From a phage, in sequence record NC_100372.1: a DNA stretch of 64,000 nucleotides; one strand, written 5' to 3'. A program made the position numbers and the translations under genes. This document shows, in pieces, positions 7,212-36,915 of the stretch. Position 1 is the first letter of the stretch. The number at the start of each line of letters is the position of its first letter. The notes under the pieces are model-generated. The model was given only the letters and a program-made list of their open reading frames with translations, was not told where the DNA came from and made no database searches.

Positions 7212-8018
7212 TTGAGCAAGAAAGAGTCCAACGACAAATATTACACAGACCCCGAGTATGCAGAATATCTTGTTGGTAAAGTAAAAGGTAAGTATGGGAA
7301 TTGTGCATACGTTGAGCCTTCTGCTGGAAAGGGTTCTTTTTCAAAACTATTTTCAGAGATACTGTCGTATGATTTGGTACCAGATCCTGAATTTGAAGGC
7401 CCAACCCCGTGTATTAAGGCAAACTTCTTAGAGGTGTACCCCAAGGCCGATGTATTCATAGGTAATCCTCCATTCGGCAAAAATTCGTCTTTAGCTTGCA
7501 AGTTCTTTAACCACTGTGCATCATTGCTAGAGCCTGGTGGAGCTATAGCCTTCATCTTGCCACGGACTTTTGAAAAAATATTTTTTGCAAACAAACTGGA
7601 CATGTCGATGCACCTTATTTACAGCGAAAGGTGCCCCAAGAACTCGTTTTTACTTAACGGCAAACCTTATGACGTGCCATGTGTTTTCCAAATTTGGGAG
7701 AAAAAGGTGTGCAATAGGGACCCTGTAGAGATCGGGGAGAATAAGTTATTTTCTTTTAGCACACCGGACGATTACGACTTCTGTATAAGACGTGTTGGGT
7801 ATAATGCTGGGAAAGTATTGGGAGAGGATGACCCAAAATCTGAAGAATCAACATATTTCATAAAATCTTTAGTTGATGGTGTTGACAGAGTGTTTGCTGA
7901 GTGCTATTCTTCTTTTCAAGAAGAAGCAGGTAAGACTGCTGGAATGAAGAGTATAGGCAAGAAAGAACTACAATACATTTTGGAGACCAGGTATGATCAA
8001 AAGTATAGACTTGACTAA
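7212..8018 (+). CDS. DNA N6-adenine methyltransferase
   Basis: YYTDPEY, EPSAGKGSF (AdoMet motif I) and GNPPFG (motif IV); start placed at TTG after GGAGG RBS because the track start sits inside the terminator hairpin. Confidence 0.7.
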   Translation: MSKKESNDKYYTDPEYAEYLVGKVKGKYGNCAYVEPSAGKGSFSKLFSEILSYDLVPDPEFEGPTPCIKANFLEVYPKADVFIGNPPFGKNSSLACKFFNHCASLLEPGGAIAFILPRTFEKIFFANKLDMSMHLIYSERCPKNSFLLNGKPYDVPCVFQIWEKKVCNRDPVEIGENKLFSFSTPDDYDFCIRRVGYNAGKVLGEDDPKSEESTYFIKSLVDGVDRVFAECYSSFQEEAGKTAGMKSIGKKELQYILETRYDQKYRLD

Positions 8019-33237: not shown

Positions 33238-33357
33238 AGCACCGAGCCCACATAAGTTTATCATGCTAAAGCATGGCCTGAAGGGGCAAACGTGCATAAT
33301 TCCATCGTATTGGAACGTATAAACCCCGTTCACACTCTCATTTCCAGAGGAGATTTC

Positions 33358-33573
33358 ATGAAAATAGAAATATTTGGTGGGGCTGACAACACTCGTGGCC
33401 TGATTTACCTTGAATTCGATGAATCTTACCTGCCAGAGGTGTTAAATATAGATGCTGTTGCGGAAGCCCTTGATGTAGACCCTAAAGATCTCTACTCCCG
33501 TGCTGAGATTGATGGTTGGGAAGAGACTCTGAACATTGATTTCAGTGAAGTAGTAGATGAACCTTTGGACTGA
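33358..33573 (+). CDS. Hypothetical small acidic protein (MKIEIFGG start)
   Basis: ATG after AGAGGAG RBS. Confidence 0.45.
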   Translation: MKIEIFGGADNTRGLIYLEFDESYLPEVLNIDAVAEALDVDPKDLYSRAEIDGWEETLNIDFSEVVDEPLD

Positions 33574-33936
33574 CACACAAGTCTGCTTTGCAGGTTTAGC
33601 TGCTCAGCTAAGGTTCTGGAGTCACCTATAACATCTTCCAACTAAATTTCCTACCAACACAGTTACTTACCCACCACACATGACTGTTTGCTTGTTTAGT
33701 GAGCAGTCATCCCTTGACATTCTTGCCTATCTTGATAAAATTAAGTTCTTCTCTTTTCTTTTACCGAGTAATTCGGGTTTTCTGTTCTCTTCGGTTTGAA
33801 GGGGTATGGAGATACACCTGAGTGAACAGGGTGAACAACCGAACCTTTAGCTATGGCATTAGCATGGCGAAGCGGACGGGTGACGAAAGAGGGGCCGGAG
33901 GACACCAGTCACTGCCATATAGTATATGGGTGATAA

Positions 33937-34476
33937 CCTGAAGAGTCTGAATAAGTGTTTAAGTACCAGTCAGAGGAAAAGGTGAATGGTAGCCGAAGGG
34001 GGAGGGGGGTTTCTTATATCTTTAATTTGTATACTTTATATACACTTGTAAACCAATTCAATTAGGATCTGTTTACCACACAAAGTGGATGGAGACAAAT
34101 ATCACCTATTAAACTTGAATTATTTATAGAAAATACCACAACACCGCTTAAGTCTTTGATTTTACACACAAATCTTACAAATATCCTACCTCCATATTTA
34201 ACATACTTGTAACATATTCCATATCCTACCTGCCTGATCAATTTACTCCCACCACATTCCCACATTTTCCCTGTCTGTACTACCCCACCCCCGCCGGGAG
34301 TCCCGTCATATCTGGCTTTCCAGCAAATATCACACCCACAAATATCATCACCTGAAGAGGGTTTCATCCCATAATACCTGCCTTACCTGAAGAGCGCTTC
34401 ATACACCACCTAAATTTTTTAATTGACCCCTCCCCGCCGCCGGAGAGGTTGGCTTTTCCCACACAGGCCTGAAGAG
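33937..34476. repeat. Four dispersed copies of CCTGAAGAG (about 33937, 34351, 34386, 34468)
   Basis: Read directly from the sequence. Confidence 0.6.
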
Positions 34477-34491
34477 TCAGCCAGAAATATC
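34097..34491. repeat. Five copies of AAATATC(A/C) in a CA-rich stretch
   Basis: Copies near 34097, 34179, 34325, 34340, 34485. Confidence 0.5.
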
Positions 34492-35023
34492 TGAACAGGT
34501 CCAGTTATGCCCCGATTTTGTGCTTGTCCTACAGGAGTGCTGCCCTGTCAGGAGCCGGTAGCGACTGGAGTGCTGCCAGGCGGACGGAATGGGAATACTT
34601 CTCATTTTTATAATAATTCTCAAATATCGAGGCAGTGAGGCAAATTAATAGGCCAGGCCGTTCACACAGTGGCACAACATTTGCAATCTATCTTGTGGGA
34701 GTGAATGAGAATACCTATCATTGTGAGAATGGTTATCATTACGGGCAATTTAACATAATACCTATTATGCGCACCACTGGCGATACATACAGGGATTGAT
34801 AACATGGGTTACTGTTTACGCACATAACAATTATATTTATTACTATTTGTGTGGGATATAGTTAGCAACCAATAGATTAGATATTGACCTGCAGACTTCT
34901 GACCGTCCAGACGTCTAAACGCCCACACAACAAGGATTATACATACATTCCTGAATGTAAACAGGGCCGCAAAAAATGCTACCATACCAGTTTGTAAATT
35001 TTTCATGCAGCACTTGACAAAGA

Positions 35024-35107
35024 GGAGAAAAACTTGTCTGACACAATGTGACAAAATTGCCACTTTTGACACTTTTACCTTTGACACAATATGACACAAT
35101 AACGGCT
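35024..35107. repeat. Array of TTGACA/TGACAC hexamers including three TGACACAAT
   Basis: Six TGACA(A/C) within 85 bp. Confidence 0.6.
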
Positions 35108-35136
35108 GTTACTATTCCATATCTCACTGTTTACGT

Positions 35137-35190
35137 ATAGACTGTTTACGCCTGAATAGTTTACGCCCAAACTGTTTACACAGAGATGAT
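35137..35190. repeat. Tandem CTGTTTAC(G/A) iteron-like repeats x4 (further copies near 34812 and 35583)
   Basis: actgtttacg, actgtttacg, tagtttacg, actgtttaca in series. Confidence 0.6.
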
Positions 35191-35202
35191 AAGCCATGAC
35201 AT

Positions 35203-35432
35203 TCGTTTGCATGAAAACAATTAACAAGTTAATAATATATGACATAATATAAAAGCAGGGCAACTATTAGAAGATCTATAGTTGCCTTGCTTGTTATGTC
35301 ATGATTAACTAAATACAAGGCAACTATGATCTGAATAATAGATTGCAGAAAAACTATCACGGGGGTGATTGTTACTGCTTTTATATTATGTCGCGACTCC
35401 GTCGCGCCATGCCATTCGTTTGCATAGTTGCC
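35203..35432. repeat. Nested symmetry block: 20-bp direct repeat, 15-bp perfect inverted repeat, four GGCAACTAT copies
   Basis: Direct repeat GCCATGNCATTCGTTTGCAT at 35203 and 35406; inverted arms GACATAATATAAAAG at 35251-35265 and 35378-35392; GGCAACTAT at 35269 and 35329 with reverse complements at 35288 and 35424. Confidence 0.65.
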
Positions 35433-36039
35433 TTATTGTTACAGGTAAAACAATTACATTATTAATTATTTCTTATCTTTCTCTTAGTCATCTAATGATT
35501 CCAGTCAGTATAGTAATGTACAGTAAACATTAGACGACTAAAGATTTCTCTGTGTATAATAACTTATCGTGACAATTTCGAACTGTTTACGAAAAATGTT
35601 GACACCTGAGCTGATTTATGTTATGCAGTTTACACGAATAATTATTTTATGCAGGTATTGACTATTCCGTTATTCTGTGGTTGGAATAAATACTTTGCAG
35701 ACTATAGAATGGCGTGCGTACGTGAATTCTGAGATCTGGCGGCTATAGTTATACTCGATTTTTCGCGTAGAACACGCTTTCGATGCTGTGTAAGTGTATG
35801 ACTTATAAAGATTTTTAGTTGTTGACAAGATATTGGAGATGTGCATCAGGTTAAAATTTGTGCAATAGCGGCATTACGTGCACTTTTGGGAGAGAAAACG
35901 GGTAAAAATGGCCCTGCTACCACACAATGAAAGATTATGCAATGGTTATTTTCCATGTATATTTGTACAGTATGTGGGATTGATGGCTAGTCAATTATTC
36001 CACTTGCCAGGTAGGGCCGTTTATGGTAGGAGAAGAGCA

Positions 36040-36068
36040 GACAAAAAGAAAGGGGCCTTTAAGCCCCT
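36040..36068 (-). terminator. Intrinsic terminator for the leftward block (AAGGGGC-loop-GCCCCTT with U-run on the minus strand)
   Basis: Hairpin followed on the minus strand by TTTCTTTTT, just downstream of gene 36088..36507. Confidence 0.5.
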
Positions 36069-36087
36069 TGATAATTCAGTTAAGAAA

Positions 36088-36507
36088 TTATAATGATTCG
36101 TATATTTCAAAAATCCGATTTGCCAGGTCGTTACGGTAGCGGAATTTTTCATCGCGCTTGATCATTAAATCCTTATAGCCGTACTCTTTAAGCACTTCAT
36201 TAACTTTATAGCGGCATACCTGCATATTATCTTGAGCGTCACCAATAAACTTGTTGCTGTGGTGCATTGCTTTAATTTCTTCTTCCAGGACCAGGGCAAC
36301 TACCCGGACCGGATCAAGCTGGTAGGCGGTAACATCTATGCGGCATTGTAGACGGCTTTTAACGTCTGCCACCGGATATACTGCAACCTCTTCCCCGTCA
36401 ACATTGACAATAATTAGTTTACCATCGATTTCGAATCCTTTCGCCGCCGGACCGTGACAAAAAGCGTTATCAAAGCTATATGCCGGATTATCAGATTTAA
36501 TGTTCAT
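36088..36507 (-). CDS. Hypothetical protein
   Basis: ORF with upstream promoter. Confidence 0.5.
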   Translation of the reverse strand: MNIKSDNPAYSFDNAFCHGPAAKGFEIDGKLIIVNVDGEEVAVYPVADVKSRLQCRIDVTAYQLDPVRVVALVLEEEIKAMHHSNKFIGDAQDNMQVCRYKVNEVLKEYGYKDLMIKRDEKFRYRNDLANRIFEIYESL

Positions 36508-36651: not shown

Positions 36652-36915
36652 TTATTTGTTGCTCATCCAGTTTTCCCAAGCTGCCTGATAATCTGCCTCA
36701 CTACGGCGGATCTCTTCTTGTTCTTCAAGCCGGATCTCTTCTTCCAGGTACCCCAAGATATCGGCTTTTTTGGTCTGGCGTAACATCCAATCGTCTTTTT
36801 TGCGAGTAAAGATCTTGTACGCTTTCTCGCAAACTTCTTTTTTGCTACCTTTTTGGACTTCAAGAATTCTGTAAGCCATGTACTGAACTAGTTTGAGCTG
36901 GTCAAGACGTTTCAT
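36652..36915 (-). CDS. Hypothetical protein
   Basis: ORF. Confidence 0.5.
   Translation of the reverse strand: MKRLDQLKLVQYMAYRILEVQKGSKKEVCEKAYKIFTRKKDDWMLRQTKKADILGYLEEEIRLEEQEEIRRSEADYQAAWENWMSNK

Follow-up and report, generated by a model that had tools for sequence, protein, structure and literature searches.

In phage T7, as reportedly described by Dunn and Studier in 1983, the concatemer junction holds a 160-bp terminal repeat with arrays of short repeats just inside both copies, and an end-proximal promoter is said to read into the right repeat. Descriptions from the genus Vequintavirus lie closer to the locus analyzed here, which is a 2514-bp non-coding gap in a 64,000-nucleotide (nt) stretch of phage DNA (record NC_100372.1; the whole stretch is referred to as the window). 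Terminal redundancies of 458 bp were reported for the vequintaviruses EdH4 and HdK5 (Korf et al., 2019; PMC6563267). The paper on phage rV5 draws a grey 'non-coding' box at the place homologous to the gap, where bidirectional terminators were expected and none were found, and attributes the switch in skew to the direction of transcription (Kropinski et al., 2013; PMC3606486). The redundancy of EdH4 and HdK5 and the rV5 box both belong to the same locus, in the same genus, as the gap. In the subfamily Vequintavirinae, Klebsiella phage KPP-1 (genus Mydovirus) has a 514-bp direct terminal repeat (DTR) with about 2x coverage that was classified as T7-type by PhageTerm (PMC9862379), and a 342-bp DTR has been reported for the phi92-like phage BME3 (PMC12210895).

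We put a probability of roughly 80% on the gap being the terminus, or concatemer junction, of a phage whose packaged DNA is of unit length and bounded by short direct terminal repeats (T7-type ends). The gap would form the concatemer junction region wherever the DNA is replicating or has been assembled as a circle. The original prediction, made from the letters of the window, had named a replication origin, a packaging site or genome terminus, and a regulatory or non-coding RNA locus as unranked alternatives. The terminus and packaging alternative gains a 460-bp DTR, the non-coding RNA alternative survives for positions 33748-34018 only, and the origin alternative is disfavored by the skew and by the variability and dispensability of the repeats. 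The features that carry the main conclusion are as follows.

33574-36087, no strand assigned: non-coding gap between the convergent plus-strand and minus-strand gene blocks
34579-35038, no strand assigned: DTR of 460 bp, present in one copy in the window
35013-35038, plus strand: right-end motif CTTGACAAAGAGGAGAAAAACTTGTC, found once in the 64-kb window
34747-34776, no strand assigned: island inside the DTR, common to three genera, CATTTAACATAAnAC...TTATrCGCAC

The window belongs to Vequintavirus. Positions 33300-36400 match 153 phage records, 96 of which cover at least 80% of that interval at 80-98% identity, and all close matches are vequintaviruses (rV5-like Escherichia coli myophages), the best being ECP26, S127 BCL3 and NHEP1 at about 98%. 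By estimate, the window corresponds to about 70-134 kb of rV5, a part in which the terminase gene would not be expected. The limits of the gap proved exact, with the last plus-strand open reading frame (ORF) stopping at 33573 and the first minus-strand ORF stopping at 36088. ORFs of at least 50 amino acids (aa) cover 94% of the plus strand to the left of the gap and 89% of the minus strand to its right, with 13% and 44% coverage of the gap, and the cumulative GC skew reaches its maximum at 33-34 kb, in agreement with the proposed convergence of a plus and a minus gene block at this place. The proposed lack of any convincing ORF is also borne out in relatives. Specifically, the same stretch is left without genes in the independent annotations of rV5_ev158, Bas59, rV5, FV3, Bas55 and Bas58, small ORFs called in the gap by other depositors vary between records, and for every mechanically defined gap ORF outside 33680-33941, a 17-genome alignment shows frameshifts or stops in 7-16 of the genomes. 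A 'structural protein' annotated inside the gap in APCEc02 was rejected as a gene, being a 44-aa ORF that is not conserved in other genomes. A scan for transfer RNAs (tRNAs) and transfer-messenger RNAs found none, Rfam 15, with its tRNA, transfer-messenger RNA, pRNA, 6S and group I/II intron families, gave no match at the gathering score over the whole 64 kb, and Rfam at E<=5 on 33300-36400 gave three weak matches, none of them credible and none in the conserved unit described below as element A. The relatives are thus non-coding here too, rather than encoding proteins or tRNAs. A gap with the same layout is found in more than 100 independent genomes from three genera, and most of it is conserved as well as, or better than, the neighboring genes.

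The left genome end is placed at 34579 (GGCGGACGG...) and the right genome end at 35038 (...AAAAACTTGTC). In the EdH4 record, the prefix equals the suffix over exactly 459 bp, and both map to 34579-35038 at about 94% identity; the EdH4 junctions (marked by a slash) read ...GGAGTGCTGCCA/GGCGGACGG... on the left and ...GAGAAAAACTTGTC/TGACA... on the right. Both ends of the ECP2309 record coincide with those of EdH4, the second record versions of bov11CS3 and bov25_3 begin at 34579, and the YN3 and EcoIv14a_Aya records terminate at 35038. Overall, at least six records including EdH4, from at least five groups, share end positions that are exact to the base. The HdK5 and ECP2303 records end about 1 kb past element A, as an end at 35038 predicts. 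Shigella phage CM1 (MK962749.1) contains at 1625-2670 a perfect 523-bp tandem duplication that starts exactly at 34579, probably produced by rotating a record that held both repeat copies. One repeat copy, with the end motifs 459 bp apart, is also present in each of a contig from IMG/VR and a closed 137.6-kb assembly; the IMG/VR scan with the left junction returned one contig, and the scan with a degenerate right-end motif returned one true contig and three chance matches, the expression being too strict even for KPP-1. The boundary sequences are invariant in 17 phages, and the DTR itself has a column identity of 0.945-0.99, a nucleotide diversity (pi) of 0.049 and no indels.

The same end sequences recur in the sister genera. 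In KPP-1, too, convergent gene blocks enclose a sparsely coding gap, and the DTR lies in that gap; there is no BLAST alignment between KPP-1 and the window locus. A single G[AG]CGGAC[AG]G is present in the 64-kb window, at 34579, and a single one in the 11-kb KPP-1 locus, where it marks the first base of the published DTR. Likewise, CTTGACAA[AG]GAG occurs once in the window and once in the KPP-1 locus, 25-26 nt before the last DTR base. Two independent experimental end determinations thus land on homologous sequence. The two loci also share a CA-rich tract with AAATATCA and CCTGAAG on the left side of the DTR, a long perfect inverted repeat with small palindromes inside it on the right side, and islands within the DTR. 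They differ in that the KPP-1 gap is shorter, at about 1.8 kb, with an unalignable remainder, and in that its last gene lies just 334 bp from the DTR, which leaves KPP-1 without element A. In Septuagintavirus A73, where the right-flank gene is 82% identical in DNA and the gap is otherwise unalignable, versions of both end motifs lie 567 bp apart, and a DTR between these two motifs is predicted. The DTRs of the window, KPP-1 and A73 share internal islands, most clearly the one listed above, and both KPP-1 and A73 have tracts like the CA-rich 34061-34500 at the same place, to the left of the DTR. In a separate observation, the A73 record (OP778609.1) carries a tandem duplication of about 102 bp at about 7760-7915, inside the predicted DTR, where its locus tags wrap from A73_1 to A73_264, suggesting that the original assembly broke there.

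The DTR is flanked on both sides by repeat arrays and modules. The most variable and indel-prone DNA of the locus is found in the 78 bp to its left (34501-34578) and the 212 bp to its right (35039-35250), with a pi of 0.33-0.35.

34061-34500, plus strand: CA-rich tract with CCTGAAGAG at 34351, 34386 and 34468 and AAATATCA at 34097, 34325 and 34340
34501-34578, plus strand: variable modular zone ending in an invariant GGAG(T/C)GCTGCCA that abuts the left cut
35039-35100, plus strand: TGACAYAAT array that begins at the first base past the DTR, with 1-8 TGACA copies among 17 phages
35126-35182, plus strand: YTGTTYAC array of ACTGTTTACG-like units at a spacing of about 15 nt, with 1-8 copies among 17 phages
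35213-35425, no strand assigned: 213-bp module bounded by 20-nt direct repeats at 35193-35212 and 35406-35425

The CA-rich tract includes C-runs at 34283-34292 and 34427-34435. To the left of the DTR, 33- and 50-nt modules bounded by 'cctacagg' have been gained or lost among the 17 phages, a GGAGTGCTGCC module is duplicated in the window (34534 and 34567), and the last 12 bp before the left cut are fixed in all 17. To the right, the 213-bp module contains an 18-nt perfect inverted repeat (35241-35258 and 35375-35392) and four GGCAACTAT half-palindromes. Phage FV3 lacks exactly this module, lost through recombination between the 20-nt direct repeats, so the module is dispensable. Comparison with relatives, which had been proposed as a check of whether the repeats are conserved while their flanks drift, shows the DTR and element A to be conserved and the repeat arrays to be hypervariable. 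Within the 64-kb window, counted on both strands, the short repeats are nearly exclusive to the gap and exceed chance. This is seen for CTGTTTAC (7 of 8 occurrences in the gap, 0.3 expected), TGACACAAT (3 of 3), GGCAACTAT (4 of 4), GGAGTGCTGCC and CATTCGTTTGCAT (2 of 2 each) and, less exclusively, CCTGAAGAG (4 of 9), and the repeat families read from the window are thereby upheld. The CA-rich and purine-rich strand bias agrees with base composition as well, with 65% purine at 33796-34012 (G 0.35, C 0.15), C at 0.295 versus G at 0.13 over 34061-34500, 79% A+T in the block 34013-34060, and 35% G+C at 35-36 kb. A 'repeat_region' annotated in phage nomo was set aside as merely a 34-nt tandem repeat.

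The part of the gap to the left of these arrays contains the unit that we call element A (33675-34018), for which the following features were defined.

33680-33710, plus strand: inverted repeat ATGACTG-N17-CAGTCAT just upstream of the promoter, invariant in 25 sequences
33714-33741, plus strand: sigma-70 promoter TTGACA-N16-TGaTAAAAT with 11/12 matches and an extended -10, reading right towards the DTR
33748-34018, plus strand: probably transcribed part of element A (about 265 nt), ultra-conserved and not protein-coding

Element A is the best-conserved DNA of the locus, and its near-invariance, which is the most unusual property of the region, went unnoticed in the original prediction. In the transcribed part, 12 of 265 columns are variable (pi 0.0095), as compared with a pi of 0.048 in adjacent coding sequence (0.017 at second and 0.10 at third codon positions; Fisher p = 3e-7). 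Across the 118 records that have it, element A is at least 96.6% identical, with 80-97% identity for the whole gap. Its conservation extends from the predicted start site to the G-run and U-tract, and two further genomes diverge abruptly just past the G5AG6 run. The promoter is also retained in the most divergent copy, from metagenomic contig Ga0129313 with flanks that are about 84% identical, where the spacer has been rewritten from 16 to 18 nt and the -35 hexamer, the TG and the -10 hexamer are kept, with the sequence from 33748 on nearly unchanged. The inverted repeat at 33680-33710 may act as an operator or may halt transcription that arrives from upstream. The transcribed part consists of a 48-nt leader that is 75% pyrimidine and a 217-nt body that is 65% purine, and its 3' end runs through G5AG6 (33998-34009) and TTTCTT into the 79% A+T block. 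The G-runs at 33996-34009 vary in length by 1-3 extra bases in several phages, and these are the sole indels of element A.

Judged by its substitutions, element A is not protein-coding, as non-synonymous changes exceed synonymous ones in all four candidate frames (5-11 versus 1-2) and start or stop codons are lost. That the three small ORFs within 33680-33941 are still open is due solely to the near-absence of variation in this DNA, and their few substitutions are 8-11 non-synonymous versus 2 synonymous. In a consensus fold, the leader would pair with the 3' G-run. Thermodynamic folding of element A on both strands was no better than that of shuffled sequences, with a minimum free energy (MFE) z-score of -1.1. 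Five of the six changes at predicted paired sites keep pairing by wobble; double compensatory changes are absent from element A, since merely 12 of 265 columns vary. A covariation analysis of five sub-regions on both strands gave no signal above slid-partner controls. No relatives of element A were found outside the genus by blastn against phages (E<=1), none in E. coli genomes, and none in plasmids, where the sole match is a misfiled phage genome. An nhmmer profile likewise gave no match in KPP-1, A73 and A5-4 or elsewhere in the window, and a metagenome scan with a 22-mer from element A returned five contigs, all vequintaviruses. We also considered GTCACTGCCATATAG, within element A, as the start of a type I-F CRISPR (clustered regularly interspaced short palindromic repeats) repeat, which we take it to resemble; this was rejected because the hairpin CUGCC...GGCAG is absent. 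Literature searches for Vequintavirus returned no transcriptome and no report of a non-coding RNA. From its conservation, element A is probably a genus-specific RNA gene or a primer-type transcript. A more specific proposal, that it represents an undescribed Vequintavirus-specific family of non-coding RNA located about 560 bp inside the right end, transcribed towards that end and tied to it in function, is tentative, and we rate it at somewhat less than even odds. Such an RNA might, for example, serve as a primer or form an R-loop where G5AG6 meets the A+T block, help to open the concatemer junction for terminase or, if the right end enters the cell first, act as an immediate-early decoy. As an unusually constrained, promoter-driven unit, element A could be a new phage RNA.

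These features can be arranged into a working model based on the general mechanism of short-DTR phages. Successive genomes in replicating concatemers would be separated by one DTR copy, matching the layout of the window. Terminase would recognize sequence at or near the boundaries, with GCTGCCA/GGCGGACGG on the left and CTTGACAAAGAG-N14/ on the right as the likely targets, and the TGACAYAAT, YTGTTYAC, AAATATCA and CCTGAAGAG arrays would be candidate binding sites for the small terminase subunit. Terminase would cut one genome at the left boundary and its neighbor at the right one, and repair synthesis would then duplicate the DTR. Because both flanking gene blocks are transcribed towards the ends, transcription would also stop in this region, which contains a terminator at 36050-36069. 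The promoter at 33714-33741 would drive the purine-rich, non-coding transcript of about 265 nt towards the DTR, and by analogy with the end-proximal promoter of T7 this transcript may serve in priming or R-loop formation for replication or in opening the junction.

The locus resembles T7 in having a short, exact DTR, arrays adjoining both cuts, and a promoter that lies several hundred bp in from the right end and points at the repeat. It differs in that T7 is a 40-kb podovirus and the phage analyzed here a 137-kb myovirus, in the use of a host sigma-70 promoter in place of one for the phage RNA polymerase of T7, in the lack of any sequence similarity, and in the end genes being transcribed outwards, as opposed to left to right in T7. 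The DTR of the genus has been known since 2019 from one sentence and several GenBank records. What appears to be undescribed is the link of the rV5 'non-coding' box to the ends, the junction motifs shared across genera, the array architecture and element A; the 2013 and 2019 papers leave box and redundancy unconnected and do not describe the motifs, the arrays or element A. Vequintavirus ends are thus located from sequence evidence in a genus where more than 100 genomes are linearized arbitrarily and published packaging calls conflict between DTR and headful. Knowledge of the ends has a bearing on the accuracy of genome records, on phage engineering and in-vitro rebooting, and on how the transduction risk of therapy candidates is assessed. 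The junction sequences are candidate terminase recognition sequences conserved across three genera.

Several observations weigh against fixed ends at 34579 and 35038. The positions of the ends come from homology, at 94% identity or more, with records in which the depositors had defined the ends. The right edge of the CM1 unit lies about 60 bp to the right of the right end of EdH4, past the TGACA repeats, and this 523-bp unit makes the right end the less secure of the two. The arrays have anywhere from 1 to 8 copies and FV3 lacks the 213-bp module, so no single array is indispensable, and the binding of terminase to any array is purely something that we infer. Lastly, PhageTerm called bov vequintaviruses 'circular permutated' (PMC8407724) and BpE1AUH was called headful from PhageTerm (PMC13211470). 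These calls, together with the arbitrary starting places of most GenBank records of the genus, are what would be expected if the gap held a pac site and the genomes were circularly permuted and terminally redundant with ends that are not fixed. However, arbitrary record starts are given by assemblers for any collapsed DTR, and later versions of the bov records nonetheless start exactly at the left DTR boundary. Headful packaging would further leave a variable redundancy kilobases long (several percent of the genome), not one of about 460 bp, whereas EdH4 has its exact 459-bp repeat at both ends, redundancies of 458 bp are reported in the genus, and at least six records from different groups have the same two end positions to the base. 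The same motifs also mark the KPP-1 ends, where the roughly 2x coverage is confined to 514 bp. The permuted and headful statements therefore weigh less than the redundancy of about 460 bp and the base-identical ends of many records, and we consider headful packaging from a pac site in the gap to be quite improbable.

The remaining explanations overlap in part with T7-type ends. That the principal function of the gap is a replication origin, which is compatible with a terminus and could take the form of iterons beside A+T-rich DNA or of priming by a promoter-driven G-rich transcript, is doubtful. Transcripts that prime replication through R-loops have precedents in ColE1 RNA II, in the T7 and T4 origins and at the G-run of the mitochondrial conserved sequence block II (CSBII), and the T7 end-proximal promoters are named for secondary origins. 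Element A recalls ColE1 RNA II and CSBII in its selected promoter, its conserved, purine-rich transcript ending in G5AG6, the T-run and the A+T-rich block that follows, and a priming or R-loop role is suggested solely by this resemblance. A73 and KPP-1, too, have G-run or C-run motifs close to the DTR, and the gap-specific direct repeats and the 35% G+C at 35-36 kb would suit an origin as well. Against it, there is no homology or similarity to any plasmid replicon, the sister genera have the same replication genes and lack element A, the array units vary from 1 to 8 copies with a 15-nt period that is not helically phased, FV3 is viable without the inverted-repeat module, and no initiator gene is adjacent, the flanking proteins being uncharacterized. 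The GC-skew maximum is also terminus-like, a polarity that speaks against a main origin, although transcription direction confounds it, as the rV5 paper likewise concluded (PMC3606486). That the gap is essentially a locus for a non-coding RNA or for regulation, with the genome ends incidental, seems improbable. Such a locus would account for the RNA-gene-like conservation of non-coding element A and for the promoter hexamers being kept while the spacer changed, but it explains just about 300 of 2514 bp, and a transcript model does not explain arrays of variable copy number that are anchored on the DTR boundaries; moreover, the covariation results, the MFE z-score and the absence of an Rfam family all speak against it. 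An analogy with phi29, whose ends are protein-primed and whose packaging RNA (pRNA) is an end-proximal structured RNA of the packaging motor, was considered because element A is also a non-coding unit with its own strong promoter near a genome end; it was not adopted given the lack of an Rfam pRNA match and the different phage group and packaging chemistry. Finally, some records are flawed at this locus (a palindromic duplication in phage I29 and the tandem DTR of CM1), as would be expected of a decaying spacer or an assembly artefact without function. The chance of this is minimal given that the same layout recurs in more than 100 genomes of three genera with a conservation that mostly equals or exceeds that of neighboring genes.

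Between the 213-bp module and the minus-strand gene block, two further features complete the gap.

35426-36049, no strand assigned: A+T-rich, conserved non-coding leader of the left genome end, with a column identity of 0.93-0.97
36050-36069, minus strand: intrinsic terminator with an 8-bp stem (5 G-C pairs) and a T-run, which ends the minus-strand gene block

The leader at 35426-36049 shows no conserved ORF and no covariation. A terminator homologous to that at 36050-36069 is annotated in EdH4, Alma and Murica. At the opposite edge of the gap, a 15-nt insertion (TCTGCTTTGCAGGTT) is present at 33581-33595, directly after the stop of the left coding sequence, and is unique to the window among the 17 aligned genomes. 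Across the window as a whole, TTGACA occurs 86 times on both strands, about twice our own estimate from base composition (about 39), and this excess fits the many sigma-70 promoters reported for rV5.

Two minus-strand genes to the right of the gap are also of note. The ORF at 36088-36507, which borders the gap, codes for 139 aa, belongs to PHROG 12277 and is without a Pfam match. It is present in only some vequintaviruses, being absent from EdH4, FV3, slur16, nomo, Alma, Bas55 and APCEc02, and yet it is 82% identical in DNA in Septuagintavirus A73 and A5-4 despite the unalignable gap next to it there; it looks like a mobile accessory gene beside the genome end. The 87-aa protein encoded at 36652-36915 is labelled 'DNA translocase FtsK' in many records. 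As it is without a Pfam match and its PHROG has no known function, this label seems to be a propagated mis-annotation. Homologues that are 42% identical are found in some Salmonella siphoviruses; used as an anchor, the gene is absent from KPP-1, and the same gene led to Septuagintavirus.

Several deposited records show oddities at this locus. In Escherichia phage I29 (ON286975.1), positions 1227-2366 correspond to window positions 34220-34795 and contain a 546-bp duplication whose copies are joined through a 120-nt perfect palindrome; it lies off the DTR boundaries and has the appearance of an artefact of assembly or of chimeric reads. About 20 records named 'Campylobacter phage' (UNVERIFIED, host Campylobacter jejuni) are 85-95% identical to E. 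coli vequintaviruses at this locus and are almost certainly mislabelled or contaminant coliphages. The record CP057073.1, deposited as 'plasmid pRHB39-C03_2' of E. coli RHB39-C03 from a cattle farm (137,565 bp, circular) and labelled non-mobilizable, is a complete vequintavirus genome; the phage may be carried by the isolate, may be a contaminant or may be in a pseudolysogen-like state.

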